From: Tubulanus polymorphus
Lineage: Eukaryota; Animalia; Nemertea
Direction of reading: 5' to 3'
Length of the DNA stretch: 64,000 nucleotides
Assembly (NCBI RefSeq): GCF_964204645.1
Contig: NC_134029.1
Location: 22,438,950-22,502,949 of the forward strand
Below are positions 24,901 to 48,440 of the stretch, in pieces. The notes under the pieces were generated by a model that worked only from the letters and a program-made list of their open reading frames with translations, did not search any database and was not told where the DNA came from. Within the stretch, counting starts at the first letter, position 1, and every line of letters starts with the position of its first letter. A program made the translations under genes and the position numbers.

Positions 24901-27900
24901 TTTATGACTGTGATTCGCTGTCTAGAGTCAGACTCACTAATCACTGAACCTGTCTGACTATGTCTGGTCGCGCTGTGCTGATAAGACACGGCATTCTTTC
25001 ACCCGGTACGTGGGGACCTGCGCTGACTAATTAATGTGGCCTTCAAAACTTCCATGCGACTGGCACAGTTCGCGCGCGGCGCGTATTGCCGGCACGAATA
25101 AGCCATTTACACCCGGTAAAACATGAATAATTCGTGAAATCATGAATATATCTGTGACCGCACTTTTTTTCGCGTTCCCCGAAGAATCGGGTATCCGGTT
25201 ACTGGCGGGTTGATTCCCGATTCGTCATGTGATGAGTAAACGCCGCAATAAAATGATCAACTACGACATGTTCGGCGCCCACCGTGGCGAACGTGTCGGA
25301 TTTCACACCACCTTCAAACCCGCTATGACACTGATAATGTCATAGGGAATTTCACCGGAAAATCTCCGAGCGTTTCGAATTTCCGTGAAGCTCACTGATA
25401 TACAGTAGCGGAATTCGATAATATAGTGGTGTTTCGGTATTGGTGCTAATTGCAGTTTTCACGTGTCCAGCTGCCGTAAAAAGCCCCGTTTAGTCGCAGT
25501 GTGACATGAAGTAGCAGTAAACAGTGCCATTACTCAGAACCTATACGGTATTCAAGTGGTTGCAAAGTTAAGTGGTTTCTCGTGATTAGCCGTTGTATGC
25601 GGACATTCAACAAATGACACGGCATCGCTATGATACCAACAGGTCTCGAGGACAGTCTGTGATATCACCATCAGGACACAACTGCCGAGACTATTTCCAG
25701 TGCAAAACTATAGACAATCCCGCACTCAAATAGAAAAACGATTCCAAAAAGGTTTTATTTCATTAAAGATTTATTCTAAACGTTTCTGCTTTAAACGAAT
25801 CTTCAGGAATACAGATACAAAGCCGAAACACTAGAAATGAATCATTTACGAACGGAAACCTTTTCAGACCCGTTTTTCCTTTCTGAATGAGGAATTTACT
25901 ATATTATCTTTATCACGGACAGAGTGTTTCATCAACGGTTTACTGAATTCTGAGCCTTCTTTCGCTTGATTCGAATGCTGTAATGGTCAACATGAGGGAT
26001 TTTTTACTTCAAAGATCGAAGACAGGTACGATTTTAACAGAAATATTTACTCCTTTTCAGAACTATCTTACTATATAGAAGAATTCATTGTTTTGATTTA
26101 TAAAACTCGGTAGTCATTTAGACGTAGGATCGGGTGTATAGCGATAATGATTTGTGACGTTATTACATCGCCGAGGCATTGTTTATAGCGAGATCTAAGC
26201 TGTGGATTTGATGTCGGCGTTATTACAGTCTTAGTCGCGTTCCTGACCCGGTTACTAATCTCTCGCAGCGTGTCCCTGCGTCATCGTCGTCTCCGGTCGG
26301 CGTCCATTTTTCGTCGCCCGTTTAAATTTACGAAAACCCGTTTCGACCCGCACGATCTTTCACCGCGTCGTCGTTAAACATTATTTACATTTCATTCCGC
26401 CATCTTTTCGTCGAGTTCGCTAATGAGATTTCGCGCCGTTCACCGCGGAGTATGAAACGAAACTCGTGAAATTTGTTTCTCTCCGAGAGACGGCCGTTTC
26501 TTATCGCCTGTTTAGGAACATCGCCGCGCGTTAGGTTCTATGTTATCGTTCGGTGCAGATATGGATTTTCTTCATGTCCATCAAAAACGTTGTTTCGAAA
26601 TCTTTCGCGAATGAGGCGCGCAAAAATAAAGACTTATTACACATCGAAGGAAAGATTTATTGCGGCGATTTGTTGATTGATGATATCGAATTGTTCAGTT
26701 GAGAAAGTTTCAACTCATCGATCATTTTTCAGTCGGAAATACAGGTAAATTTTGATGAATCTAGTTTTCCCGTTTTCGGATAGCGGAAAAGCTCAATCAG
26801 ACGTCTGCTCAGGCTAATTCGAGCAATCGGAACAGAAATGAACAACGAACTTATTAAAAAAGACATTTTTCAAGTCTGCAAAATAGCTGATATACATAAT
26901 CTTTAGTTGATACTAGAAAATTTCATGACTATCAAAACTAGTCCATTTATCAATTGATAAAACTTATTTAACTGCAATATTTTGCTTAAATTTTTGGGTA
27001 ATTAATACCTCATTCAGGTCTTAACTTGACCCCAAAAACCACGAACACCTTGACTGAATATCCAATATTATACCAGTTCTGTATGGATTCGAACAATTGC
27101 CAAACAGTTCTAGTGTTCAACTTGAATAAAAAGATTTTATGCTAATTCTTCAAATCAGGAGATAACTTGTATGATATCAGATGATGTCTGCAATTTTCTT
27201 CTGGGTCAACTTAAAAACTAGATGAGATATGTACCCCGGAAATTAGAAAAAAAATCGTAGAAAAAACAAGTCTCACTGATTAACAAATGGTCTGTCGAAA
27301 GTAATTTGCATATGTTAATTAAGGCAAGCGCGGGCAATTTGGAGTTATTTAGTAATGTTCGATTATTACTGACGCCGGTTTCTGTATGGCTTGACGAGGG
27401 GAAATGTTGTGAAAAATTGATGCCGACATAATCAATGCGAACTGCGGCCGCGTTCTAGTGATATCCAGACTAACTATACTCGAAGGACCTCCGACTGGCT
27501 GCAACAGTTCAACAATGTGAGCCGCGACAATCGCCATAGTAACAGGTTGTTCTTGTTTCGTTTTTTTTTCAACGAAACTGCTCGAATCTGATTGGACGAT
27601 TCGTCCTATAATTACGCAAGATTAGAACGTTGAAGTATTGTTCGGAATCGGGTTTTTTAAAGCGCGACTGAGATTTTCACGGTAAAATGCGTGAGAAGGA
27701 TTTTCAGCGAACGAATGCTCGTCGAGGTAAGTTACGAATCGCGAGGTACATGTTCCCCGTGTTTTCTTTTTTCGAAGATAAACGATATTACGTGGATAAT
27801 GCATGAAACGCCGCGGTACGAAGGGCTTTGATTTATCAGTTTCTCGATTTGCGAGATTTGTTTTGATAATATACGACCTCTTTAAACACGGAATTGATGA

Positions 27901-30900
27901 CGATGTTTTATGTAAATTCTATATTTGATGAGTATTTCTCCTTCATTCTTCGTCGTCGATAGATTCGTATTTTCCGAGGAAATGAGGCGATTAATTATCA
28001 TGTCATTATCCTCTATTTATCATATTTTCACATGATATTCATTACCAGCAGTATAAATATTATTCTGATAAATCTTCTGTATCGTTACGATGAATGATGA
28101 TACAGTTTATTCTGACAGTATCGAAATCTATCTTCCGAGAAACGGAAATGAATGATATTTTTAAAAACGGAATGATTTCGTCGTATCATCAGCAGATCTG
28201 TCGTGTCATCAGCAACAAGTTTTTAACTATTCTGTATTGTTTTTATTGAGACCCATTTCATTCATAAGAGGTCATTTCTATTGATTATGATGGGATCACA
28301 TTTTTATTGGGATATTGACTGATTTTCTTAATGGTGCAGCTGTGATTGCGCTGTCTGTACCCACGCCCTCCAGACTATTACCATCCGTTTACAGAGCTGA
28401 TTGTCAAGACCGTCTCTACTCAAAAGGCATTTCTATTTGACGCAAATTTAAGTTTTAACCTGACTTCAGAGACATTAAATCACCAGATTAATCCCTGCTT
28501 GAGATTTTAGATTTGATAATTTCACAAATTAGAAGTTTTTTGGACAGTTGAAAAAACCTAGTCAACCACGTTGATAAAGGTACACGGAAAATTTGTGAAA
28601 GCTTTTTAAGACTTTTTTAGAAACTGAGACTTCTGACTTCTACATTAGCGTTTGAGATAAGATTGGTTCATTCACAATCATTCCAATTCTAGGGAGGAAT
28701 ATATCACCGGTGGAACTGACAATCCACCATTGAGGTGGAACTGACTATCCACCATTGAGGTGGAACTGACTATCCAATATTGAGTTGGAACTGACTATCC
28801 ACCCTTGAGTTGGAACTGACTATCCACCATTGAGTTGGAACTGACTATCCACCATTGAGTTGGAACTGACTATCCACCATTGAGTTGGAACTGACTATCC
28901 ACCATTAAGGTGGAACTGACTATCCACCATTAAGGTGGAACTGACTATCCACCATTGAGGTGGAACTGACTATCCACCATTGAGGTGGAACTGACTATCC
29001 ACCATTGAGGTGGAACTGACTGTCCACCATTGAGGTGGAACTGACTATCCACCATTGAGGTGGAACTGACTATCCACCATTGAGTTGGAACTGACTATCC
29101 ACCATTGATAGAACAATACAAAAGCATTTTTCTCAGTTACTATATTATTGATACATGTATTGTGTATCGCGATCCTCGTCCTCCGTATTTATGCAAGTAT
29201 GATGATAAATACCATCACCGGATACATACACCACTCCGGTACAACAATTTGCATCGATGAAATCCCTGTTCTAGATACGAGACACCGTCCATAGAATGGG
29301 TTGAAAGGAGAGACGTCGACGCAACATTTGTCATCGTTCGTTTTCTAAAAACACACATGAGACGTCGCGGTTGTGCATCATTAACGTTAAGTATATTAGA
29401 TTTCACGGGTTTACGTCGCGGTGAGCTAACTTATAGCAAAGCCATCTATATTCACTATCTGCATTGTTAAATGGAATGGATTTAGATTTGATTAATGATC
29501 GCTATTTATTATGATCGGCTACCGAAGTATCTTCGGTTTATTTCACGCGAAAGTCATCGGAATCTTATAGATTGCCGCGTTGTTGACGCGATGACACTTT
29601 CGTAATTAGTTTTCACAAAACTTGTTGAAGCCGGAAACACAGAAACGCAACTTAGATTGATCGCGAAACATCGACTTAAAACATCGAGCTGTTTTAGATT
29701 TCCTCGATCGGATCGGATTATGAATTTGTATAGCGTCTTGTAAATTGCTGATTTATCAAAGTGCTCTCAGGAAACAGGTGATGACTTGAGCTGTCCTATG
29801 AATGCCGTGAAAGAGTCGGTATCATCGGCGAGGGGTTGGGTAGGGAATTCCACACGATAGGTGCAATGCAAACGACTCCAGACGATACGATCTAACCGAG
29901 GGAAGGTTGTCTGACTCGAAGAGGTTATGCATTATGATAATGTATTTCATAACTAACAGAAGAGTTTAGTTTTTTCTTTAGTTCGTAGTTTCAGTCTGAA
30001 GTCGTTGAGATAGCGCTGTATCGATGATGTACAAGTCGTATGCCAGACACGAAACAGAACCTGTCATCTTGTTGCGTTCGTCTTCCCGGATCCGATCTTT
30101 ACTTACTGTTCTAAACAAATTGTCTCGTGCTCGGCCCGTGTTTTTCCACTCGCTTCTACAACTAATAAATTAGATTTGCATCAATGATTAGTAGTTTTCC
30201 TCTGCTCGGTTACTGATGACTAGAATTCTAAGATTGGGAGTCTCTTCGGAAGGACTGTTGTCCGTAATTTTCCGCATTCTCATATCATCTCATTGCAGAG
30301 TTTTTCAACTGCTCGCGTTTCTGGTTGAGTGAAGGGTTTTATGCGATTTCCGAATCGCCAATCGAACCCGATTTAATATGATGGCAGTTTGCCGTGAAAG
30401 TGCACCGTCTCGATGTCGTATCGTCGGAGCCAACCGGTGTAGAAGATGTCCGAGTGTAATATTCTGGATCATGTCCACTATTCCGGCAGGACGGAGTGGC
30501 TCATAAATTCTGGCCATTAATAGCGCGCATACGAATTCTCATGACGGTTTTGTCAAATAATGCAATCATCTGCAAACCTAGCAGTCTCATAAATTACAGC
30601 TCGACAGACATTGCTGGGATGCACACTGATTTAAATAGCGCAGTCCTACCGGTAATGAGTATACATTCATCACAGCCGTTGTTAGCTGTCAGTTGATATG
30701 GTGCTCGCGGTCCAAGGATATTATATTTTTTTTTTCAGGAAAAAAGCGCCGTTTGATGGTTTATTTCGATAGTCTATGAATGAATGTCTCGACCATTTAT
30801 CTAAAATGCTTATTGATTCTCATTACCGACCATAAAAGCTTCGACGCTTCGCTTGTCGGAAGTAACACTTCCCGAAATTCCTCGTTATAATTATACGGCA

Positions 30901-33900
30901 ATCGGATTCCAACTATCGGATAAGTTATTCGTTGCACACACATGCGATTGCCTTATATTACTTCAACCCATATTTTCTTTCATACCTCGTCATAATTGCC
31001 CGCAATTTCATATATACCGCGCGCTGTAAGTAGAAATTATTACTGCAAGTAACATTTGCATAATTGGCCATGAAAATTCCAGTTGGACAGCGCTTACATG
31101 AAAAATAAAAGCTGTTATCAGTTTATCCATATGATGATTAGAATATTGGCTCGATAGGATTTAGGGTAGATACCGCGCAAATATTTCAGCCAGTCTGAGC
31201 TGTTTAAGAACATTATACCCCTCTATTGTGTTCATATGTGTTCATTTAAGTCCGGTGATTTCAAGTGTAATGGAGGGAGGTTAGTGTATAGTCTATCAAT
31301 ATATGTTCTGTTTGAGAGCCTTAATTAAATTTTTTGTGTTAAGCCCGAGCCTAATCCGGCTCGGGCTTAACACTAAAAATTCAAACATTCACACTGGTGC
31401 CAAATGGGCCTTTGCCTGTTCGACGCAGGTCAAATTTGGCCGACCTAAACCAGGCCGGTGCCAAATTCAAGCACAGGTCAGATTATTGTGTGTGTGAATG
31501 TGAATAAGTTCTGGAAGTGACTCACTTCGCTTTGTCACAACATGTTTAGTATGGTCATGGATGTAAATACGTCCATGGTATGGTATACATGTAAATGTGC
31601 CCTCTCATTAGGACTCGCGCCAAATTTTATCCGGGCCAATTTGTTCTCACTGTTTTCGTTGTCTTGTATTTTCAGACAACGAAACGTTCACCAGTTTCTC
31701 GAATCCGAACTACCAGTTGAACGAAGATGACGCCCTCAATTCGAACATCGCGTCCCCGATCACTCCAACATCCGTTCAGTATTACGAGGGACAGCTATAC
31801 GACGATATCAGTCCCGATATTCTATCCACAACTCGGACATCGTCGTCGACCACTTCGAACAACACTTCAAAACGTCGCCGAAATTATGCACAATTGGACA
31901 TTAAATCAATGGGAATAAACCTAACGGATCCCTCGTCACGACCGACGAACTGTAGCCGTACGAGATGCGGGGATCTGAAAACCCCAGATAGTGTGTGTTC
32001 CATAGATAGTCAGCGATCGGATGACGACTCATTACCATATGCGGATGATAGCTCATTAGCATATGCAGATGAGAGTGCCAGCGATCGCCAGACGGTTGAG
32101 TGTTCGAACAATCAGGAGACCGACGATGACCTCGATTGTAATAGTCTTACTCCATCCTATGCAGAAACGAAATCTGGGTTCTTGGGATATTACGCGAGTC
32201 TGGAAAAATCTCTGAAAGCCGCCGAGACGGAGCGCCATCGCGAGGCCGTTAGTACGGACGAATCGGAAGGTGAAGATGACGAAGACGTAGATGATGATGA
32301 TGATGAAGATGAGGTGGAAGAGCAAGAAAAAGAAGAGCGGGCTGATGAACGAACTCGATTGTTGCCTCCCGAAACAAACGTGAATCAGACAGATACGGAT
32401 AAATCCAATAATCCAGAAAGGTGGGCATCAATTCACTTTTCAAAACAATTTCCTTATTATTTGAAATACTATGAATTAAAGTCTTGCCGAAATACAAAAA
32501 TTAACTATAAACAGAAAATAAATATTCAAGCAACATTAAGATGGGTTCACCAGTGAAACAAAGTCATCTCATTATCGTAGTGATAATTCTTACGCAACCT
32601 TAATAATGATAATGATAATGATAATGATGTAATTGTTAAATGAAAAACCTCGTTCCACCGCTTGCTTACTACCTTTATCATCATAGTCCATACCGGTTTC
32701 AGCTATTTTTCTATCATTACCTAGATTGTGATGCCTATTCTGTACTTCTGAGATATTGTAGATAGTTTTCCTTATAGCTTTCGCTTATTGGTGAATTCCA
32801 TGTTTGATGCTTTGATAGCAGTCTCGTGTATGTTGCTTAGCCGTATATCTGATGAGTTTATTAGATTGAACTAGGAGGCTTTGGTGGTTGTTTATTTTAT
32901 GCTTTTTGTAGAAGGTTATCAATTTCCACTCAATTAAACAAGTTATTGTATGAAATCCATGAACGGAAATTTCCAACTATGTACTTACTTTCGATTTCAA
33001 ACCCTCTGTAAGGGAAAGCAAATAAATAACTGTAGAAATGAATGAGGAATATTGACAGGTGCTGGCATCTTTCATTATTGATGAAAACTAATTACCAATT
33101 ACATCAATACACCACGGTGCAGTGTACTAGCAAAGTCCACAATGTTTACACAGCACTGAAAGGGTTAATATGATTATAGGTTATAGCTTAAAACCAAATG
33201 TCAGCTTTTTGATGAAATGTACTTTATTTTTGAGTGGAGATTGTACGGTTTCTATAATTTCTATACTCTACACAAACTTACACTGACACAAGCGCATATC
33301 ACTGTGTTCCTTGGTCGTCTCCAATAGCTACTGCTTCACTCTTGCATTGTTGCTCCACTTTTGGTGTTACAGTTTCTCGGACAAAACAAAGTGTATTAAT
33401 TCTCCCGACTCCAATGATAGTGGTATCCAGGCTGACCACCAGGGGGAGCAGCGCGAACTAAGCAGCCATGATCTCTACCAACTGTCGTTGAAGTCCGCAT
33501 CGACGGCCAAGGTGAAATTGCGCAACCCGGCGAAGACTGCGACCAACAACAGCAACAAAACAAGTCCAACTGAAGATAATAATTCTGCTGAGGTAAGATT
33601 CAAGTGTTTTGTATAATAATTAGCTCATTATTAGTCTGTCAGTACAAGACAATGATCTATCACTATCGTACATATCTGTTGATGATTTTCAAATTGAATA
33701 TTGAAATGACTTTTTAGATTAAATTTTCTAAATCGATATGTGTTGTTTATATTGCTCTGGTGAGGCAGCAGCAATAGAGGCTTTACGTGTGTGTATATCA
33801 GTCTTCCATCGGTATTCCTGATATTAATCGCAACTTCTTTGAAGATCAAAACATTTTGCACTGTTTACTATTGACAGTATTCTTTACATCCACAATGTTT

Positions 33901-36900
33901 TCTTACTCGATATTGGCATCGGTATGCGGATCATCGTGCTTTAGGAATTCCACTTGACTCTTTGATGCCACTTCGTCGGCTTGGCCAAGGTCATTCACCA
34001 TTTTTAATACATATTGAGCCCTTTTATAGGTGTACTCCATTAGAACCGTGGAATTTTAGTGGACATATCAATATTATACATTGTTCTGAGGGTTAGTAAC
34101 GAATTTACAAACTATCGAAGTCAATTCAAATGAATATTATTAAATTGATTTCACTTGGTTCATACAGACCAGGTATGATATGTTTATCTGGCGTATTCTA
34201 GGAATTTGTACAGATGTCTACGCATGTTCAGTCAAGTCGATGCTGATGAACACGTTTGGTTGAAATATAGGTTGTTTTTATCCCGACGTAGAGTAAGAGA
34301 GCTACTGATGCACTCTTGAGATACTAAAAGCCTCCCTGAATACGAAATGATCTCATGAATTGTGGTGCTGTAGGAAAAGTGACAGAAATTGATACAGAGA
34401 TTGAGAGTTGGTATATGTTTTGCTCTCTTGTAATAAGATGGTTTGGACAGTTTATGGATGTAGACAGTGTTTATCCATTGGAAGCATCCAGGACGTTAGC
34501 ACCTGAAATGGAAACCTTTTCACAATCTGATGGCAAATTGTGATGCATTTCTGTATTCAATGAAAGGAGGCTATCGGTTGCATGGCTTTGAATACGAATG
34601 AATCACGAACGAACCTGCGTTGGGTTCTGGATGCAAGACATCAAACGGAATAATCTAATCCAGCTAAATTGATCAGGACAGTGCAACAAGGTTCATAGAA
34701 CCCACAAATATTATTATGTTGAATATCATCATTTGATTCATCAGACTCAGTTAATACGGAAAGCCTCTCGGCTGCTAGGGTGTAATTACCACCAGTTGTA
34801 CAACTGTCTAGACTTTACACATAGTCTATAAATATTGAGATAACTCATCTTACAATGGAGCTTTACTGAATTATATTGAAGCGTTACTTCATGCTGAAAC
34901 AACCTTCTGCTATTTCATACTTCTTCAATAAACAGCACTGCCAGCTCTACATCTGAATGTGGGTTATCGTTATATTGGCCCATATGGTTCAATCGTCTTA
35001 ACTCTGGAGTTTTCTTATCCTGGTGGTTTCGGAATGTATTCACTATAGAGGCACTAGGAGTTCATAACATGGTTCTAATTTGTCAGCTGTAATTGTGCTG
35101 ATGAACGACAATTGATGGATAGATTTAGAAAGCGAATTGCTGACGCTCCGTATTTCAAGCGCGAAAGGATTTTTATTATGTATTTTTGTCGATGACTTAT
35201 TTGGTCGGGGATGAATTGGATACGTATCAGTTTTGCCGTTGTTCAGTATCAGTTCTGGTATCTGTGGTCTAGTATGAACCAATTGGATGATCACAGCGAA
35301 TGTTTAAATTACACTTGAGATTTGAGATAAGTATCTGTATGCAATATAAGCGATACATATCATGATGCTGCAACTATGAAGGAAAGCTGTTCTGGATTCA
35401 CATACGAATAAAGATATCTCTTTCTCCAGATCATAAAAACTCAATCTTTTTTCGTGCATATAACATTTGTATTTCGGAAAGATGTGGTTGCGTATCTTTG
35501 TTTTTATCATGGGATTATGAAATCATTACGAAAGTCAAAAATTAGGATGGGATTTCCAAAATATACTTACAAGGTATATAACATGTACACTATCGAATGC
35601 AGCTTATGTAGGCATTATAACCTACAGTTGTGTGTTTTTTATATTTTCAGCCTGAAGCAAAAGAAGAACTGCCCCCTGGATGGCAGAAACATGAAGGTAA
35701 GATTGTTCTACCAGGTTTTTATTTCTGTAAGGAAGATTTACCAATGATATTGCCTTCTCAACATGCTCATTAGAAATACCTTGCTTAATACTTATAAGAT
35801 TGTGGCCGTATTGCATTTATCAGTGAATAAGTTTCGTAACTTATTCAGAGATCAGTAATCTGTACCGTAACTTGAGTGTTTTAGTAGCGGTTTGTGGTTC
35901 ATATCCTCCCAGGAATGTATAAACAAAAGGGGAAGGCGAAGTAATTGCGGAATACCTAAGTACCCTGACAACTGACTTCGCAAATGTTCATGAAACTCTT
36001 CTGACGTAACAAACGTCTGCATTTCTTCTCACGTCGACTTAAAAATTTGTCGATGATGAGTGTTTCAGTATTTAGAAGATGGTACTGTTGTAGCTATTGC
36101 TGCGATACATAAACAGCTGGTTAATTTATGAAACTTGTCCAAACAGTAAGAAGTCTCTCTGCTTCTAAATTGATCTCACGGGTAGCAACAATGTAAATTC
36201 ACCTGTTGCTTGCTGTAAATCATGTATGAGGATTTACGGACAGTAGATTCAGGTAATTCATAAATGCGCTCGTGTGAGTCATAACTTTACTCGGATAGAA
36301 GTCAGAAATTGTGACGTTTTGAGGATTTTTGAAGTAAAGATCCATAGACGTCTCAGCTTCAGAGATGACTGAGGACCTGTTAGAAGTGGTGATGTCTTTG
36401 ATTATTTACCTATGTGTTCAATGCGTATATATTTTCAGATGAGAATGGTCCTTACTACTGGCATATCAAAAGCGGTACTATACAGAGGGATCCACCATCA
36501 AAACACCAGCGACCACTTTCCATAGCTAGTGATATTTCTATCGTAAGCATTTCTTTATCAATTCACTCGAAAAACACGTCTGCAGTTCATCAAAAAGTGG
36601 TAATCATCGATTCGTTTCTTTTTACAGAGTTCAACATTCAGTTCTTTGACATCTCCGACATTCCCCGAAACTCCAGGCAGTTGTACGTCTGGTCTTTCTG
36701 AAGATGAATCCGATCATCTCAATGCTTTAAAAGAACACGCTTTCAACTATATGTACGCGTCGGAATCATTGAGAAATCTGTAAGTATCTTCTCTTCATTC
36801 GCTGCCATCTTACGACGACTTCGTGAACCAATAACCATTACACCTCGGATATTATCTCTAGGTATACCCCATCAGATGATTCCGATGCAAGTTGCGGTTC

Positions 36901-39900
36901 GGACAAAAGCGAGAAGAACAAGTTTAAGATCAGATTCGCCGTACGTTCGCTCGGCTGGGTGAAGATTGCCGAAGAAGATTTAACTTCCGAACGTAGCAGT
37001 AAAGCAGTGAATAAATGTATCGTCGATCTGTCATTAGGACGTAATGACATCAATGATGTGGTCGGCAGATGGGGAGATGTAAGTCTTTGAAAACATTTTA
37101 GATTTAGACTACGTTCTCGATCTTGAAAAAAAACCCACCACAACTGCCAGAAACCGGAAATTGAAGCATAAAGTCGGATGAACAGACGAACTTACAGAAT
37201 GTTTTGCTTTAAATCGAAGAAGTAGATCATAGGAAATTTCAGTAGAATACTCTCTTAACTATTGATTAGACGAACTCGATTTGAATTCTCATTGTTTCAG
37301 GGTAAAGATCTCTACATGGATTTGGACAACTCATGTCTGACGTTGATTGATCCGCAAGACGAAACAGTTCTCAACAAACAAGTCATACAATCTATCAGAG
37401 TTTGGGGAGTTGGTCGAGACAATGGCAGGTCAGTTGAATTTATCAGATCACTCGCTTTCTGTGATTTGGGTTTTGTCTGCTATATGAAAACTTTGAGAAC
37501 TTCCGAGCGCGTGTGCGCAACTTCTCAATATTTTCATAGGCAGATGGGAAGTATTTGTGAGTGAAAAGTAGATACCTCGTGTTAGAACCATTGATAACTT
37601 TCTCGCTTCGGGAATCTGTGTGGATCATGCTCTTTGAATCATTCTGTTTCTTCTCTTCATGCTTTCATCTTAATAGAGAAAGGTAACGATTAAATACTAA
37701 TCATTTTTCATCGCTTTTTGTAGAACTTTTTCTATTCTTGTTGTCGTTATCGTTGTGTTGTTTATTCGTTAAGTCAAGATTTTCCTATCTATTCAAGTTT
37801 TTGTTGTTTATTGTCGTAAAATGGCGATCATCTCACTGAAAAACTACTTAACACATTTTACATTCTAGACAGCAGTTTTCTACGATGAATTACCGAATGA
37901 TTTTGTGTCCCGTGCAGTCGGGCGGTTTATTATTACGTAGCTGATGACCATTTCCTATGTAGATTCGCGAGATGTCTCGTTTGTATCGGCGCGAAACTGG
38001 ATAAAAGCACCAATTACCGTCTCGGGACAAATGGATACAAATAACCGCCCATTGTCCAGTTGATTGGGTATTGTTGTAATTGGTAAAGCTACGTCTAGAA
38101 TCAGCAATACTATTTCGCGACTAAGTTCGCTGATGGCCGTGCCCTAAATGGTGAAAGTTTTATAGACTTGCTCGCTAAATGAAGATTGATGATGTCTGGC
38201 TTTGCTCAGCATGTTGTTCCTGCTAGCATCGAGAATCGGCCAGACAGTGTTTCTTGACACTGAATCTATCAGCAATCTTCATTAACTACAAAAAGATATT
38301 TCAGCATCTACACAGTTGATACTGCATATTGTACAGTTGACATGATGTCGTATTTACCAATGATACGTTAAATTCATGCGCGTTATGATTACTGGATCAC
38401 TACCGCCATCTATCAGAATTACTGAAAAGTTATCGCTGCAGCTTTGAGTATCTGTAATGCGATATAACCGTTTCTACAAGAGCGTAAAGTGATCTTTACT
38501 TTTTCCCCATGTCATGAAAACGAAACTAATGCATTTTTGAATGAATAGCTTGTCTCGCGTTAATTCTTATCAGCTTACAGAATACGGGCTTTAAGCTTCC
38601 ATTTCGGAAACATATAGATTTCATGAAATGTCATCAAACGCGTGCAGCTAAATCACTATTTAATACACCGTATGTTTATCAATGTTTATTATCCTCTTAC
38701 CTGGTGTCGTGTGAGTGTGGGGGTAGATACTGCTGTCTGTTGTGGCTGCTCAGCAACATGCTCGTATAGACATATACATTTAGATGAATTTTGTCAGTTG
38801 CGGTAGCAGGAAACGCAAGCATTCTCTTCAGTTTACGGGTCGCTTCGTATCGACAGATTGTTCGATCATTAATCTATTTATTATTCACGGAACGATTGAT
38901 CCCGTGCCAATATTGATCGATCAAAAAGAGCGAACGTTTCATAAGAGACCTGATACGCGCTGAAATAAAGCGGATAATTAGAACAAAGAAAATATTAGAC
39001 ATCGTCTAGATTCGAAAGCACGATCGCCTTTGGTTAACGGTATAAAGACCTGTTTGAAAATCGACTGTTTTGAAATATTTGTAGGGATTTCGCGTACGTC
39101 GCTCGTGATAAGGTATCGAGGAAGCATATGTGTCACGTATTCCGATGCGACACGCCTGCCAGAGAAATCGCCAACACTCTACGAGATATCTGTAAGAAAC
39201 TGATGTACGAACGAAGTATGAGACACGGCGACCCGTTCGCGTCTGCTCAGCGCTCGTCAACGATACGTCCGAATAATCTACCGAATCTAGAGAAGAACAA
39301 CGAACCAAACGGACAGAGTTATACTTTCCAGAGTTTATACAAAAGTAAGTAGAATCTTTTCAATTCGCGATCGGTTCTAATTAAATGGTTTCATTCCAAT
39401 TACATGTTAGATTTAGATGTTGTGCATTTTGTTGAAACTTCCGTATCATGAGTATACGATGTTTGCTTGTGGTTCTCCTGTCAACCTGATCAAGTTATGC
39501 ATTATAATCTATAATTTGATATCGAAATATTCATAATGCTCTATATATTTTACTACATGAAATACATAATGATACTGGCAATCATGATAATAATCATAAT
39601 AATAATAATATGACATCGTTATTATTATTGATATTAGTATCGTAAAGTATTTCATCTATTAAGATTTATAAAGTGTTATGAATATTTCGACATTGAATTA
39701 TAGATTCATTCCATTATAATTCGTGCGACTCGATCAGGGTGACAGTTCTCTTGACGGATCGGTGAAAGTTTTCGAAACATGTCTGAGAACTGTTCTGCAA
39801 TTTCAATTCTCTTATCGTTCATGTTCACTGTTGCCGACACTGAACTAATTTAACGGATACGTTGATCTGTAATTAAGATTCAGACGAGTACGTCGCGCTC

Positions 39901-42900
39901 CGTCGCGATGTAAATCCCGTCATGCCGTCTGAGAGATCGTCATCAGTAATTATTCCGAGTCAAAGTCAAATGATTGCTCGGAATCAATTAGACTTGCATA
40001 TCTCGATATAGCCTTAAGTCGCGGCATTCTATCAGTAGAAATATCTTAATATTCTCATGAGTAAAGGCAGATTTGTGCATCCAAGGATAAGGTGCATACA
40101 GTACTTTGAATATCCTCAAGGTTGATTGTCTAAAACCTGTAAGATACGTATGATGTACAATCGATCATCAATGTGAGGTTTGACTTGTTCTCAGTCCCTA
40201 GGTATCGGTGAGATATTTCAAACTTTTTTCCAGAAACTGAATTATTCATGAATCTGCGTTGTTAGTGCTCTTATGAGGATGATTTTGTCGTCGGTCGTTT
40301 TGATCAATTCGGTGATTAGCTCCCTATGAGCTTTCTGGATCGTTTGAAACTACCTGAGCGTTTCGCATCTGGCTAAGATTGCGGCTCCGGTTCTGTCTGC
40401 ATAATTCATCATCGGAGTTGCCTCCTCCTCCGCCGCCGCCAAGCTGTCGTCTCAATCCCGCGTCCCTGAGTATAATGAGTCATCGCTATTTCAGGTGGTG
40501 ACTCCTCATTAACCGAAGCAATGAGTCACGAATCGCTGCAACAAGTGTCCCCTCCCCCCTGATAGACGGTCACATCGTTTATTTGACTGCACAAAAATCA
40601 CACTCGTGGATAGACTCATCGCGTTCTCTCTAAGTCAATATGTCAATGTCGATTGAATGAAGGAATAAAGACATGTACTGAATTGAATGATTACCGATTG
40701 AAAATGGATGCGAATTCTTTTTCGAGGAGACAAAAACAATCTATCCAACTCGATTCGGCGCGAGGCTCGGTCGCGAGAAGATAAAGCGCGAAGATTTCAC
40801 CGTCATTTATAACACGAAGTTAACGATGCTTTATGAATTTGAGAGAGAGCGAGAGAGAGGGCTGTAGATGATGTTCCGCGAAAAACAATGATGCGTGGAA
40901 AGTTAAAACAGATAGATCGCTTTTGAATGGGAACGATTTATGCGTGATCGGTCGATTTTCATAATAAAAGTGCAGAAAACTCATGAAACGACGTGACATT
41001 TTTTCGCTAACAGGAACATGCGAGTGGGCGTTTGTGTAGGTAATATCGTAGAAGTCATATGTCACAACTGAGTCGCAACTGATCGCATTAGAATCGGATT
41101 TCGTTGATTAATGTCAGAGACATCTCAAAAACGCCTGCGTGCGCGTATATACCGTCGCATGAGAAATCTCACAATAATTCAGCCAAAGATGTAGAAATTT
41201 CTAGAGTAATAGTTTTATATATTTGAGCAACATTTCAGCTAGAGATTATTAGTGGTGTGTCTGGCAAATATTGTTCAGTTGAAATGTTGCTCAAATATAT
41301 TAACCTTTTACTCAAGAACTTGATACATCATTGGCTGAATTATTGCGGCAATTTCTCTCGTATTCTTCGCCGATTTTGTGCGTCTTGTCGACTTATACCA
41401 CAGCAGTCCGCAATATATCGGTTATGCAAAAAGAATTAGATATTCAGTAGGCTTGTCGTCCAGTAGGCGGTCTGAGTGCGAATAAGACAACATCTTTAGT
41501 GGGACTAACAACACCGGCGGTATTGATCCCGGGAATGGTAACGTCTTCGTCGCCGCCGACAACTGGCGCTGTTTTGTGAATGATAGCCGAGCGTATGCCC
41601 AGATAAAAAATGATAAAATATTTCCAAAACCTGAAATATTTTGACGAGATCGATCTAGAAGGTAAATATCTCTATTGATTTATCACTCTGGAAATTTCTC
41701 AGTCGTGGCTCGTTCGTCTCGCAAGAAGACATCGATAAAAGGAGGGTTTTTATGTGTGCAAGTGTGAAAGCGGAAACCATCGGAAATGTTTGTATGTTCC
41801 CCGCCCGATGTTCCATTGTGAGTCTCCTAAAGCGAGAGGCTCAACGTGTCTGCTGATTTGAAATCAACAATACTGGAGGAGACATCGTGTCTGGTACTGC
41901 TGCAACTTACTGCAGCTGAGGGACATCAGTAACACACACTATATGTATCGATACTGGTGCAGATACTGGTGCATCATCGGGATGATGCTGATGAGGTTGA
42001 TGGAACTGTATTATCACGTATCAGTTGTCCTGGCAATTTTATAACAGCAAGCTGGTAAATGCGACACTTATTTTCGCGCTCGCGCACAGGAGTTACCATA
42101 CATACGCGATGTACGATGAACGCATGCGGACAAATCAGCACCGTTAAAAAACTTTGGCGCATCGGCGGCTAATTCTCAGTCAGTCCTAGAGGATCATGGA
42201 TTTATATCAGTTCCTACAGGCAACAAGCAGTGAGACGTTTTTCATACATTTATCTTTTTTTTTAATTTCACGAACACTCTATCGGGTATCAGCTAGATGC
42301 TTGCGTTTCACTGGCAGTATTTCAACGATTATTCAGTTTCAGTAGCTCTAGTGATGTTTTATTCAGTTACGCAACGATTATCTAAAAAATTTGCCTTACT
42401 TTAGATATGTATAAATTGCGTATATCGTGCTTTCTATTCATTTAGTAGAAAATCATGCGACAATTTCCCGATATTTGAATGAGGCACTTCACTATTATGC
42501 GCCATTCATTATAATTTCGCTATGATTGGAAAGCTTCCCCGTGCTCGGGATAATTTCTGTCTAATTAGGTTTCTTTATACCCTGGGAATACTGCAACTTC
42601 TCGCAGACTTGTCAATTATTTAGATGCATTTACAATTTTCAAATCCCTTCGGTGGCTGTAACATAAAACGTAGAGGATAACATCGAGAATGCTTTGGATT
42701 TGCAGTTAAATTTACTGAAAAAGTCAAGACTTATGATATATAACCTGCTGTCGCTGTACAAATTACAGAAAAAGATTCGAATTTGATAAACATCGTTTGT
42801 TGAGGTGACAAGTTATGCAAAATTGACGAAAACTGTTACCATAAGCGATGAATAATGATTTCCTGTTTTGAAAGCTGGTGCCTGGTATCAAAGTTAGCCC

Positions 42901-45900
42901 CTGTCTGTTTCGTAGGGTCCCGCATTCTAAATTACCATGATTGAAATTTTTCCGATGTCATTTCGGGAACGACGCTATAATACAGAAATCTCATTAAGCG
43001 ATGAGCTAAAAGGCGTAATAAAACATTACACGAAAATCCCATTATGATAAAAGCGTCAAGGTTGAGACCGGTTTCTATGAAACGCCTGCGTCCTCGTCTT
43101 CTAATCAGTTTTTCTGCAGCCGCTTCGTGCAAAACATTCTGGCTATCGGCTAATGTTCATCTTTGCTATCAGCTTTCCGTAAGTCTAGCATAGCAATCGC
43201 GACAGCCAGTCTACCGGGGCTTTGAATACATAGCCGCCAATATCGCTTTATGCTCCGCAGTCGTCTGATCGCGCTGCGCTTTCGTCGTACCTGAGAAAAT
43301 AGTCGGCGTCGCCACACGGAATAAATCTAGTCTCATTTCACTCAACAGGTATCAATTTTCAACAGTCTGAATGTAATATTTATCATGTTTGATTGTCGCC
43401 CTCAACCCACTGAGCGTCACATACGGCATTATTAGCGGGTTTGATGTTCATTTTTCCTAATCAAGAGGAGAGAAGAAGCTTTTGATGATTGTCACCAGTG
43501 TCAGGTACTGTTTTATTACAATCTGATGATATTCGTGATATTGAGGAGAAAATCATTTATTGGTGTGGTTCCAGTGCCTCGATGTAACATCAGTACGGAG
43601 GTTGATTTTATGATGCACATGATATGAATAACACTTAGTCATCGCATATAAACAGTTCTTTGTTTTGTTTCGCAATATCGTGAATCACTCAGGTAACAAA
43701 ACAATCAGTCTCACCTCGACAATTTCATTTACGATATGATCGCCTTCCAATAGTTCTTCTATTACATGTGTGGGCTTTTGAATCATTCCGTGACATTCAA
43801 ATCACTTGGACTTTTTCTGTCGAAAACGTTTTCAAACAATCTCAGATGCAGTCGGATGAACCTCGGAGTACTCTAAGGATGAACTGAGTGCTTAGATTTG
43901 TGTCGTCAATTCTGGTCGAGTGATCAACAGTCGGAACGAGAAGTGCCGTGAAGACATCCGTTCAGTGTCTATTTTCACCAGTGAGTAATTGGCTCGGATT
44001 AGGCGTCGTATCGACGACAGGAAATTGGTTTGCTCCGGGGAAAATGGATCGAACAGTTGTGACCGGTAGTTTATATGCGTATCCGTCAGGTTCGAACGGT
44101 TATTTATTCTGCCACGAAAATCTGGCGTGATGTCTGAGCATCACTGGGTGTCATAGTCATGTAGTCGACTTATTTCATGTTTGAAAAACCGACTTCGTAA
44201 AATCGTGTGAATTGATATATTTCTTCGGCTCAGTCGGGAATATCAGTTTCCACGCGTTGCTCTTGTTATGAATTTATCTTTTAAATTGTATCTTTTACTC
44301 GTCTAATGCTGTCGGTATTAATCTCTCATCCATCACGATGCGATCGAGCTCAGCGGCGGATTATCATCGGTTTTAACTCGGTCTTCGTGCGGCGGGATAA
44401 TTTTTTCCGGAAAGAATGTAAATCGTTCTCCGCGTTGGTAACGATTAAATGATTTCGGTTGTCACCGATCCAGACGGCTGTAACAAATTATGCATTAGCC
44501 GATGAAGCCGAGCCAGACTGGCGCTTTTCTGATTGATAATGATGTCAAATCATTTATATACCAAAGAAAACTTGGATAACTTATTCCACAGGCAGCGTTG
44601 GGCATATGTCTATATGTATTTTGTCGTTTTTCAGTTCAACTGATCGGAACTATGTCAATTTGATTGTCATATTTAATGTTTAACCAGTTTTTGTACTTCG
44701 ATAGTAGTCAAATAAATCAAATCAAATCAATCAAAGGCTTAATTGTGGTTGGCGTACCGATCATCGATATCGTACTAAAAACCTTCGATTTCATTCTCAT
44801 TTCAGAAACTTCATTCCCGACTCCGATGGAAGAACCGAAGAAAGTCATCCGTGCGCATTACGTCGGACAGATGCAGGTGTCCAAACCGACTGGAGTCGAT
44901 ATACTCAACGACGCGATGCAGTCACTTTACAACACAGTTCCACCCGAGGAGTGGGTCTTCGTTAACGTGGGAGTGGCACCTTCCACTTTGACCGTTACCG
45001 AAAATGCGGTAAGACCACTTCTAACTGATCCATACGATAAAATCCGGCAATATGGAAGAAAGACATATCAGAAAGGTTTCCTTGCTGTAGTTTAATTTTG
45101 ACGTTTCGACTATATCCTAAAAGACATCATCTTCATGAATACTAAGGTTACAACAAAACTACGAAATATACAATCCTAAACAACTTTGAGGCAACAAGTG
45201 AACTGTATACTATGATTATGTGTATATATTTCATAATCTTGTTGTAACCCTAGTATTCCTGAAGATGACTATCAGGATGTAACGGTAGAAAGATGGAATT
45301 AGTTGAACTGCAGCTCGAGGAAACATTTCAGACCGGTGAAAGTGGGATAAAACGAGACAAGAGACGGTTACCAGACAGAGTGTTTCATCAAGATTACTCG
45401 TAACCGAATTAGGACGAAGATGAATTTTTAATTCGTGCTACCATCGAGTTAATCATTTCTTTAATAATAAATACATCTCCGCCGGCGCTGTATAACATCC
45501 CGCCCGCGTTTTACAACCAACAAAGTTACCATCACCATGACAACCAGTTGAGTATGAAGCTACGGGGATCGATATCATCGCCGACTGCTAACGCAGATGA
45601 AGTCGCGTTGAATTCCCCTCCGCTTTAACCGCGGTCTGTTTTTAAGCGGGTCGTAAATTTTTTCTCCCCGCGCGAGTTCTATAAATCTGATAAACCTCTG
45701 CGAGCACCGATACATTAACCCTTTCACTGTGAAACGCGTCGTGAATGTATGATATATTACGCGGTTATTGATTCGAAAGATGTTGTATATTTTGTAGAAT
45801 CCTGATAACCAGATTTGCGAATGTCGTGTGCGATTCCTATCGTTCATGGGTATAGCCATGCAAAATGTGAAGTGCGTATCAATTTTTCGAATCTTCAAAT

Positions 45901-47879
45901 CTATCAAATTTTCGTGTTGGTTTCAAGTTTTCATTTGAGTCTAAAAAACACGACTTTTCAATTTCAGATTGTGTGCTTTCATCATGCACAGCGCTCAAGG
46001 ATCGTTTGTTGCTCATGTTTTCCATTGTGAGCCTTCAGCAGGTGCTTTATGCAAAACCATTGAAGCTGCTTGTAAGGTAAAGACCATTTGAAAAAAAATA
46101 CAGTCCACCCATCCTCACAGTTGTCTAGAAATTGAAATGCTCTTGGAAATGCATCACTACATTTCCCTCTATCCACCCCTGTCTTATCGTAGTAAGTTTA
46201 GCAACTTTAACCCTTTCAGTGCATCTACACTGCAGTGCGGTGTATAGATTGGTGATCGAATTTGCTTGTACACCGCATCGCAATGCATTTATGTTATCAG
46301 TAATTAGTTTTTATCTCTGTTGAAAGATGGCAGCACCTGTCAAACATAGTTAAATCGGTAACTAACGATACACCACACCATGGTGTAGCACACTGTCTTA
46401 AGCAGTATGCCCATTATTCCACAGCCTAGGGTGTTTTAGGGAATTTTTTTAAATCTTTGAATTATCCAGCACTTTTGGGTATTTATTAGTCGGTACTGGA
46501 AAAGGGTTGAGAATTTTAGTCCTCAGCCAGTTGTTCATGTCATTTCTAGAAGCTCTTCGCAACTAGACTCGAGAATTATTTCTTTATTTGCAGTTACGTT
46601 ATCAGAAATGTTTGGACTCGCATCCGACTACACCCGATATCAAACGACAACAAATGATGCAAAGCAAGGTAAAATCGAAATCATGTATTTTTCTAGATAT
46701 TGTGTTAGCATATCCCACAGTGGCTCATCTGTTATAAATAACAAAATGCCCGATTTTAGCTTCGATGTTGATTTAAATCCGTTCATTCAGAAATTCCTCT
46801 TTATTCAATTGAATAGCTTTAGTTCGTTAGTATATAGATGTTGTTCACGACAAATCATTTTTTCGAAATTTTGCAGCAACATTTTTTATTTTGAGATATT
46901 GTCACCGGTGTGAAATTTGTTTCGATAGCCACTGTTTTTGTGTAACCTTTTATTTGATTGCGTGGTTTTATTAACAATCGCAAATTGATTCATTTATTTC
47001 GAAGCATATTTCACGAGCAGATACCGAGAATTTGATTTAATCGATATAACATCTGCAACTTATATGTTTATCAGGAAATTTTAGACCAATATAAGTAAGA
47101 AAGATATTTCTATTTTTTTGCTATAAGCTGAAGGCAGCATTCGGCATGTTTCTATCATCCTAGATATACAGTATGTTCTCGAGTACAGAGCCTGAGTGGA
47201 TTGCTACTAATCCATCTGAATCTATTTCTGCTTCAAAAAGAAAGTTTGCCTAGAGCATCGGGCGACTAAATTCTTTGATTAAAATTGAAGAAACCTTACT
47301 ATCACCTTCACCAACACACCGCTGATAGCAGAAACTTTAGCATGGGAGCAATGTATTCAGTTTCTTCTAATGAAATCTGTCAATGGATACTGATTTTGAA
47401 ACTTACTTTCTATAATACGCCAGATTAAACTATTTTCACTGAGACTTGCTTGAATTCATTACTAGGCTGTATAAGTTCGATTCTCCGACTAAGCATTTAT
47501 ACGAAATTTGTTTCAATCTCAGAATCGACTGAAACGATGGAGAGAATTGTTGACGAAAGTTCCCGCATGTCGATGTCTTATTGTGCATATTTCTGTCCAC
47601 TACTTTTTCAGGCCGGTCTAAGGGCTAGTTTAAAAGCCGGCGTGCAGAACGTGTTCGGCATGTTCAAATCCCGAAAGACGGAAACATAACTGATCTGTGT
47701 ATAATAAACCTGACCAGGTAACAGCCATCGATGCGAAAACAAACTTCCGAATATGCATCATTGTTTTATAGATAAACTACTTTATTCATTCATTCATGTC
47801 TTAATTTCTTATCCCGTCATTAATTTTTATATAAGATTTTGTTCTCATCCGTAAAAAGAAAACTTACTCATTTTCTATT

Positions 47880-47958
<79 letters not shown>

Positions 47959-48440
47959 TTGTACCTTTTCGGTTATCGAAAAAAAAATCATAATCAAAAT
48001 GTCACATATTCTCCGAAGGGCTAAATTTAGTATCTAACCTTTAATGAACGTATATAGGGCGTCGTCATTGTAGCTGAACATACCTATCGGTACATGCATT
48101 GCATGTTAGCTTCCTTTGCGTTCATAAGAATATGCTTTACATAAGGAATGCGATATTGAGTTCTATCGAATTTGCTTATGATTTTCTATCAATGCTAGTT
48201 AAAACACTATCTATTTAGAAATGCCATCCATTCTGTTAAAAATCATATTTGCATGAATGGTGACAAGAGCTTTCGAAATAATCTGACCAAATTCTCATAA
48301 TTCTATGGCTCATTCACTGAATGTTCGGATGACACCTTTTTTTCGTATGGTTTTTTCAGGGTTTACGTAACAGCTTGAAGAAAAGTATGGCGACCGTTCT
48401 CGGACTGCGAACTCAACGCAACGGCGGTAAACAAAGTTAG
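20665..48440 (+). CDS. Fe65: Fe65/APBB-family amyloid precursor protein-binding adaptor gene (WW + PTB1 + PTB2), multi-exon. About 839 aa with last exon A (stop 47689) or about 840 aa with last exon B (stop 48440); +2 aa with the microexon.
   Basis: The manually spliced exons all have GT-AG boundaries and matching phases; the 14-exon sum is 2520 nt, divisible by 3. Diagnostic peptides: LPPGWQKHEDENGPYYWHIKSGTIQRDPP (WW); FAVRSLGWV...IRVWGVGRDNGRDFAYVARD...CHVFRCDTPA (PTB1); FPTPMEEPKK...ECRVRFLSFMG...HVFHCEPSAG...AACKLRYQKCLD (PTB2). Vertebrate paralogue (APBB1/2/3) cannot be assigned. Confidence 0.95.
21900..21962. repeat. (TA)n microsatellite
   Basis: Perfect dinucleotide run. Confidence 0.95.
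28709..29108. repeat. 25-bp minisatellite, 16 copies (GGTGGAACTGACTATCCACCATTGA), in the first coding intron of Fe65
   Basis: 400 bp of near-identical head-to-tail units with no spacers. Each unit carries a GGTGGA/TCCACC inverted repeat. Confidence 0.95.
31676..32420 (+). CDS. Fe65: Fe65 large N-terminal exon (low-complexity Ser/Thr- and Asp/Glu-rich)
   Basis: Acceptor GTATTTTCAG, 745-nt open frame (ORF 31717..32556), donor AG|GTGGGC in phase 2. The acidic tract resembles the acidic N-terminal region of Fe65 proteins. Confidence 0.85.
33002..33164 (-). mobile_element. Partial, diverged inverted copy of the piggyBac-type MITE
   Basis: TTGACAGGTGCTGGCATCTTTC and GCACTGAAAGGG|TTAA are reverse complements of family motifs. 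Confidence 0.55.
33373..33592 (+). CDS. Fe65: Fe65 coding exon (FSDKTKCINSPDSNDSGIQAD...NNSAE)
   Basis: Acceptor TTACAG (phase 2), donor GAG|GTAAGA (phase 0). Lies within ORF 33311..33616. Confidence 0.8.
35651..35696 (+). CDS. Fe65: Fe65 exon, WW domain first half (PEAKEELPPGWQKHE)
   Basis: ATTTTCAG acceptor, LPPGW motif, donor G|GTAAGA in phase 1. Confidence 0.92.
36439..36542 (+). CDS. Fe65: Fe65 exon, WW domain second half (DENGPYYWHIKSGTIQRDPP...)
   Basis: TTTTCAG acceptor in phase 1, YYWH motif, donor ATC|GTAAGC. Confidence 0.93.
36628..36779 (+). CDS. Fe65: Fe65 WW-PTB1 linker exon
   Basis: TTTTTACAG acceptor in phase 0, open frame SSTFSSLTSPTFPETPG...ESLRN, donor CT|GTAAGT in phase 2. 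Confidence 0.85.
36862..37078 (+). CDS. Fe65: Fe65 exon, start of PTB1 (RFAVRSLGWVKIAEEDL...VVGRWGD)
   Basis: CTCTAG acceptor in phase 2, hallmark FAVRSLGWV, donor GAT|GTAAGT. Confidence 0.95.
37301..37428 (+). CDS. Fe65: Fe65 PTB1 exon (GKDLYMDL...IRVWGVGRDNG)
   Basis: TGTTTCAG acceptor, IRVWGVGRD motif, donor AG|GTCAGT in phase 2. Confidence 0.95.
37677..37682 (+). CDS. Fe65: Candidate 6-nt alternative microexon AGAAAG in PTB1, changing NGRDF to NGRERDF
   Basis: Polypyrimidine tract containing TGC (37660-37662), then TAATAG|AGAAAG|GTAACG. It preserves the frame in a phase-2 intron, at the same position and with the same peptide outcome as the vertebrate APBB1 microexon. Confidence 0.75.
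39085..39344 (+). CDS. Fe65: Fe65 exon, end of PTB1 (DFAYVARDKVSRKHMCHVFRCDTPAREIANTL...)
   Basis: TTTGTAG acceptor in phase 2, DFAYVARD and CHVFRCD motifs, donor A|GTAAGT in phase 1. Confidence 0.95.
44806..45008 (+). CDS. Fe65: Fe65 exon, start of PTB2 (TSFPTPMEEPKKVIRAHYVG...)
   Basis: ATTTCAG acceptor in phase 1, FPTP-EEPKK motif, donor GCG|GTAAGA. Confidence 0.93.
45798..45871 (+). CDS. Fe65: Fe65 PTB2 exon (NPDNQICECRVRFLSFMGIAMQNV)
   Basis: TTTTGTAG acceptor, ECRVRFLSFMG motif, donor AA|GTGCGT in phase 2. Confidence 0.93.
45968..46076 (+). CDS. Fe65: Fe65 PTB2 exon (LCAFIMHSAQGSFVAHVFHCEPSAGALCKTIEAACK)
   Basis: ATTTCAG acceptor in phase 2, HVFxCEP motif, donor AAG|GTAAAG. Confidence 0.93.
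46211..46506. mobile_element. piggyBac-type MITE, same family as 61203..61490, in a Fe65 intron
   Basis: TTAA|CCCTTTCAGTGC start and colinear internal sequence (GAAAGATGGCAGCACCTGTCAAACATAG). Right end is degenerate, AAAGGG|TTGA. Confidence 0.8.
46594..46668 (+). CDS. Fe65: Fe65 exon, end of PTB2 (LRYQKCLDSHP...QSK)
   Basis: TTTGCAG acceptor, LRYQKCLD motif, donor AAG|GTAAAA in phase 0. Confidence 0.92.
47612..47689 (+). CDS. Fe65: Fe65 alternative last coding exon A (AGLRASLKAGVQNVFGMFKSRKTET*)
   Basis: CTACTTTTTCAG acceptor in phase 0 and a TAA stop. Followed by AATAAA (47703-47708) and a possible donor CAG|GTAACA at 47717/47718. Confidence 0.75.
   Translation, partial: AGLRASLKAGVQNVFGMFKSRKTET
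47885..47955. repeat. (TA)n microsatellite between the two alternative last exons
   Basis: Perfect dinucleotide run. Confidence 0.95.
48360..48440 (+). CDS. Fe65: Fe65 alternative last coding exon B (GLRNSLKKSMATVLGLRTQRNGGKQS*)
   Basis: TTTTTTCAG acceptor in phase 0 and a TAG stop. The peptide aligns with exon A (GLRxSLK-x4-V-x-G). Confidence 0.65.
   Translation, partial: GLRNSLKKSMATVLGLRTQRNGGKQS

Follow-up and report, generated by a model that had tools for sequence, protein, structure and literature searches.

The Fe65 gene of Tubulanus polymorphus and its PTB1 intron

The window (the whole 64,000-nt stretch of nemertean DNA analysed here) carries on its forward strand a Fe65/APBB gene, whose features are collected in Table 1. 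Twelve internal exons match letter for letter the RefSeq isoforms of Tubulanus polymorphus LOC141905801, and the orthology of the gene is indicated by its Pfam PID assignment and by its best PDB match, PTB1 of human APBB1 (3d8d). Alternative first exons exist, one of them at 24350-24424 (+), and three alternative last exons at 47075, 47612-47689 and 48360-48440 (+) produce different Fe65 C-termini among the RefSeq isoforms.

Table 1 Features of the Fe65 locus and of the related S-E-W introns (position -1 is the last base before the microexon).
Feature	Position	Strand	Remarks
Fe65/APBB gene, mapped coding span	24350..48440	+	two PTB domains, WW-like segment, alternative first/last exons; span excludes the first exons of five isoforms
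Upstream PTB1 exon	37301..37428	+	ends ...WGVGRDNG plus two Arg bases (phase 2)
Microexon-bearing intron, 1656 nt	37429..39084	+	phase 2, Arg codon divided
AG exclusion zone, 89 nt	37586..37674	+	
Distal TGC	37628..37630	+	-49
Pyrimidine tract with UCUC/CUCU element directly before UGC	37642..37659	+	TCTC at 37652
Proximal TGC	37660..37662	+	-17; 14 nt before exon
Microexon 3' splice site TAG	37674..37676	+	
6-nt microexon AGAAAG	37677..37682	+	would add Glu-Arg (R to R-E-R)
Microexon 5' splice site GTAACG	37683..37688	+	6/9 U1 consensus positions
Downstream PTB1 exon	39085..39344	+	begins G-DFAYVARD
S-E-W loci (locus:position)	L055:1140, L057:1763, L068:8810, L069:2771, L072:7749, L080:4220		
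S-E-W partial introns (4)	L061, L062, L064, L079		

Within the phase-2 intron that divides the PTB1 coding sequence we find the arrangement TAG/AGAAAG/GTAACG that the initial annotation had described, with the hexamer at 37677-37682. Direct joining of the flanking exons encodes GRDNG-R-DFAY; inclusion of the hexamer would give GRDNG-R-E-R-DFAY, the product claimed earlier, and the frame remains open. By chance, this intron should contain 0.004 ER-coding hexamers bounded by splice sites (1000 shuffles; analytic value 0.0036). None of the other 10 introns of the gene holds one, and a scan of both strands of the whole window returned 2 matches against 0.09 expected.

The second of these matches (8385-8396, minus strand) was rejected because it has no pyrimidine tract. 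Alternative donor or acceptor use as a source of ER was dismissed as well, since neither the bases that follow 37428 nor those preceding 39085 encode these residues, and so was local RNA structure (z = +1.06 against shuffles). A second sample has 0 variants near the microexon where 1.7 would be expected, a depletion that is not significant (P 0.18).

Other elements of the window are recorded here for completeness. A loose window scan gave 22 matches, one of them a second 6-nt candidate, CAG/CTTTCC/GTAAGT at 43173-43178 (+), which lies in the intron linking PTB1 and PTB2, would preserve the frame, and has a TGC at -9 and an AG-free zone of 51 nt; neither homologous proteins nor the 19 loci having the PTB1-PTB2 linker intron support it. 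Intronic stretches at about 33070-33145, 41160-41215, 45120-45260 and 46207-46500 show very deep contig coverage in run X4 with inverted joints between them, and are likely a multi-copy repeat or a short mobile element. On the minus strand, 588-1172 is occupied by a 21-nt tandem repeat, likely a minisatellite, that can be read as a long open frame repeating HPLYCLY.

Splicing signals at the microexon

Among the 16 acceptors compared in the gene, that of the microexon has the longest AG-free zone and the highest upstream pyrimidine fraction (0.81). Its own donor is moderate, and the donor of the upstream PTB1 exon (GTCAGT, after 37428) agrees with the U1 consensus at 8 of 9 positions. A simple pattern scan of the 97 nt upstream revealed no strong branch point and weak motifs at -86, -21, -13 and -7.

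The TGC placed by the initial annotation about 15 nt upstream of the exon is present at 37660, and is likely an eMIC/SRRM-type enhancer. Taken alone, a TGC at the Tubulanus locus is weak evidence; the trinucleotide occurs in 31% of equal-sized intron windows and at 4 of the 15 other acceptors of the gene. Across orthologous microexons, a TGC lies at -30 to -6 of 16/19 acceptors, compared with 5/19 downstream constitutive acceptors (exact paired p 0.001), and the median AG-free zone is 51 nt compared with 29 nt (p 0.003); ten hand-picked lineage representatives give 9/10 and 2/10 for the TGC (p 0.016), and 54 and 30 nt for the AG-free zone (p 0.049), all of these p-values being indicative only because the loci are related. 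The earlier claim of a UGC enhancer is thus borne out by enrichment across orthologues, and not by this locus alone. The pattern suggests that the cis-code is old, besides the exon.

The orthologous intron across animals

A metagenome scan supplied orthologous loci, the best 80 of 121 relatives comprising 15 spliced sequences (3 with ER), 38 partial introns and 27 whole introns; at 95% exon identity the whole introns fall into 21 groups, and the orthologous-intron loci include no deuterostome intron. In this set, YAG/R-E-R/GT is present in 14 of the 21 distinct whole introns, compared with 0.05 expected from shuffles, and so the element is not a chance occurrence; on the reverse strand of the same introns it was found in 0/21. 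The remaining seven groups divide into five with an S-E-W element and two with no candidate.

The R-E-R hexamers vary at positions 1 and 4 only. Cytosine at position 1 was found exclusively after an upstream exon ending in CG, so that the arginine is preserved. In an approximate tree the loci are distributed among cladocerans, insects, a nematode-like branch and spiralians; lineage labels are approximate, as loci with fewer than 60 aligned residues were omitted from FastTree. Comparison of 14 spiralian introns yielded 20 alignable stretches, 12 of them at the microexon; none of the other spiralian introns tested could be aligned with the intron of the Tubulanus gene.

Conservation of AG/AGARAG/GT in relatives, on which the initial annotation had staked its proposal when it called for alignment of the orthologous intron, is what we observe: the R-E-R hexamer stands between splice sites in both protostome branches, with the variation noted above. 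Shared position, phase, length and encoded residues support its orthology to the vertebrate microexon.

Lineage variants

The nematode-like orthologue (L039:9776, L048:9797) retains the hexamer as CGAAAG, 68-76 nt from the upstream donor, and has no TGC in the 60-70 nt read upstream. This absence represents one lineage, and two non-nematode loci are also devoid of a close TGC. At -30 to -6, 3 of the 19 orthologues have none.

One spiralian paralogue clade, accounting for the five S-E-W groups, shares AG/TGAATG/GTARGT, which would encode S-E-W in place of R-E-R. Found post hoc and predicted from introns, with no transcript seen, the element forms a conserved island within diverged introns. The sister spiralian paralogue (L038, L041, L065, L070) retains R-E-R.

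The two groups with no candidate among the best 80 of 121 relatives belong to a mollusc-like clade (L020, L026, L027), whose introns measure 290-607 nt and whose flanks are altered to GRENG and GRENN. This clade has likely lost the microexon.

Such a distribution could reflect a UGC/eMIC code kept since the bilaterian ancestor, a UGC lost along with eMIC in nematodes, and a duplicated spiralian copy that retained the switch while its output went from the charged R-E-R to S-E-W, a scenario to which we give somewhat less than an even chance. If it is true, how the oldest neural microexon is regulated and what it does to the protein would evolve separately, and the lineage variants would constitute a natural series for probing the role of the two residues.

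Skipping and inclusion isoforms

In run X4, contig 1 spans the gene in spliced form and skips the microexon: positions 39085 and 39344 fall at 1615 and 1874 of the contig, when inclusion would have moved them to 1621 and 1880. Run X5 gave no contig at 90% identity and two at 80%, and its contig 8, from a relative at about 80% identity, skips the microexon too. These contigs show that inclusion is not constitutive, and have no bearing on neurons. No Tubulanus inclusion transcript appeared among the contig matches listed for X4 or in the 6 RefSeq isoforms; contigs drop rarer isoforms, the tissue is unrecorded, and a small X4 inclusion contig could lie outside the matches listed.

RefSeq isoforms with ER number 0/13 in nemerteans (0/6 in Tubulanus polymorphus, 0/7 in Lineus longissimus), and ER was seen in 0/15 members of a cuttlefish cluster among those listed. 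The expectation that annotation pipelines would miss the microexon holds for the nemertean models; among molluscs and arthropods, several annotations include ER. Among 271 proteins retrieved, 222 cross the junction, 38 with two extra residues (37 ER, 1 EK) and 184 without, counts that include non-independent isoforms. ER-containing forms are annotated in many arthropods, and both isoforms in Haliotis rufescens, Pecten maximus, Gigantopelta aegis, Crassostrea gigas and Biomphalaria glabrata. A pair of barnacle-like transcripts with 99.2% identity, L006 and L007, likewise represents both isoforms, L007 carrying an extra AGAAAG at the junction. We also note a gastropod-like Fe65 transcript (P0179) that reads R-E-K at the junction, not R-E-R.

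Predicted consequence for the protein

The human PTB1 chain 3d8d reads GRERDFAY at the aligned position, confirming the vertebrate APBB1 counterpart that the earlier reading of this DNA had named. In the AlphaFold model of the ER form from Haliotis, E477-R478 are placed in a loop between strands 465-470 and 479-485 (block pLDDT 72). The two added residues are predicted to extend the PTB1 surface loop that separates strand IRVWGV from strand DFAYVAR.

Reviews describe the mammalian residues E462-R463 as absent from non-neuronal isoforms, and their inclusion as strengthening Kat5/Tip60 binding. By analogy, Glu-Arg might strengthen Tip60/KAT5 binding in Tubulanus too, a suggestion we make tentatively and would sooner doubt than accept; another PTB1 partner is equally possible. 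A zebrafish deletion series that includes an apbb1 line is reported to be free of gross morphological defects.

A probable ancestral neural microexon and its alternatives

We propose as the probable explanation that the hexamer is an ancestral cassette microexon, included in neurons, which adds Glu-Arg to a loop of PTB1. The same element occupies this intron in many animals, and the Tubulanus copy for that reason probably adds one more case to an ancient splicing switch of nerve cells. Its parts do not carry the same weight: 37677-37682 is almost certainly a live orthologous microexon, and that it is neural and eMIC-driven in Tubulanus we think rather likely. The cassette was very likely inherited from the bilaterian ancestor. 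It is presumably too short for default recognition; most cells likely leave it out and neurons likely splice it in. In neurons, an eMIC-bearing, neuron-restricted form of Srrm234 would bind the UGC within the long AG-free zone, and the UGC-bound protein would then recruit the early spliceosome.

A real orthologous microexon could instead be included without eMIC or without neuronal specificity, for example through activators acting on the U1 side, PRP-40/RBM-25 among them, or at low levels in many tissues. The nematode-like copies point in this direction, as they keep the exon with no nearby TGC, and C. elegans is described in published passages as having no eMIC and using PRP-40/RBM-25. About 31% of such windows would hold a TGC by chance alone, and the fly and mouse eMIC programmes are reported to have only four exon positions in common. 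Against this, the orthologous microexon acceptors are enriched in TGC and in long AG-free zones, the Tubulanus locus has UCUC followed by UGC together with the longest AG-free zone of its gene, and a September 2026 preprint (10.64898/2026.09.05.749416) calls the orthogroup neural across bilaterians. On balance we deem inclusion by other means unlikely. As for a vestige that Tubulanus no longer splices in, the skipped form is indeed the only one in two spliced contigs and in 13/13 nemertean RefSeq isoforms, but hexamer, TGC, AG-free zone and the two splice sites have all stayed intact in an intron whose remainder is unalignable to the other spiralian introns tested, and contigs from unrecorded tissue drop rarer isoforms; a vestige is very improbable.

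Still less credible is that the hexamer matches by chance, or was gained independently in an intron prone to such gains, with no descent from the vertebrate-type exon. Six bases hold little phylogenetic signal, and neural exons are reported to arise often, and repeatedly, in the same genes. Yet intron, phase, length and residues are the same in vertebrates, ecdysozoans and spiralians, the chance expectation is 0.004 per intron, and the main-text passages of 10.64898/2026.09.05.749416 infer a single ancestral origin, with neural inclusion across bilaterians, for the APBB orthogroup.

An ancestral, neuronally included cassette remains our preferred reading. The nemertean copy extends a bilaterian-ancestral neural microexon to an unsampled phylum and corrects the Tubulanus gene models. 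Its presence, loss, UGC loss and recoding by lineage offer a way into the question of what has preserved two residues over such a span of time, a retention that contrasts with the reported absence of gross defects in the zebrafish series.

Comparison with known systems

Our literature search found no paper on microexons in nemerteans, none on a conserved invertebrate APBB2 microexon and none on octopus Srrm234 microexons. An occurrence of the exon outside vertebrates may already figure in Torres-Mendez 2019. What appears new here, from sequence comparison, is the nemertean record, the conserved UGC layout, the nematode-like copy with no nearby TGC and the S-E-W paralogue.

A close precedent is 10.64898/2026.09.05.749416, which presents the 6-nt exon of APBB1/2/3 as one of only two confidently bilaterian-ancestral neural exons; it covers 20 species, with octopus as the sole spiralian and nemerteans unsampled. 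The Tubulanus element resembles that orthogroup in gene family and in length. The initial annotation suggested that the microexon and its regulation predate the split from vertebrates: it was right about the origin of the exon, but the point had already been made there, and the UGC is backed by cross-species comparison, not by the Tubulanus locus taken by itself. UGC layout and recoded copies are undiscussed in the main-text passages of the preprint.

With the microexons controlled by eMIC proteins (SRRM3/4, Srrm234) the locus shares a short exon, a UGC near the acceptor, a UCUC-rich tract and a long AG exclusion zone; the pattern scan of the 97 nt upstream gave only weak branch-point motifs. 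A UGC near the acceptor and a long AG-free zone are described as features of fly and mammalian eMIC targets, and like Drosophila targets the Tubulanus microexon combines a weak donor of its own with a strong upstream donor. The Bonnal preprint shows that the UGC is not strictly required for the SRRM4 response, and a review describes the bilaterian ancestor as having had a neural Srrm234 isoform with eMIC. Compared with mini-exon 9 of vertebrate APBB1/Fe65 (E462-R463), the Tubulanus element resides in an invertebrate gene and is unannotated in that gene's own RefSeq models; the two are alike in being 6 nt long, in belonging to PTB1 and in encoding Glu-Arg at the same aligned position.
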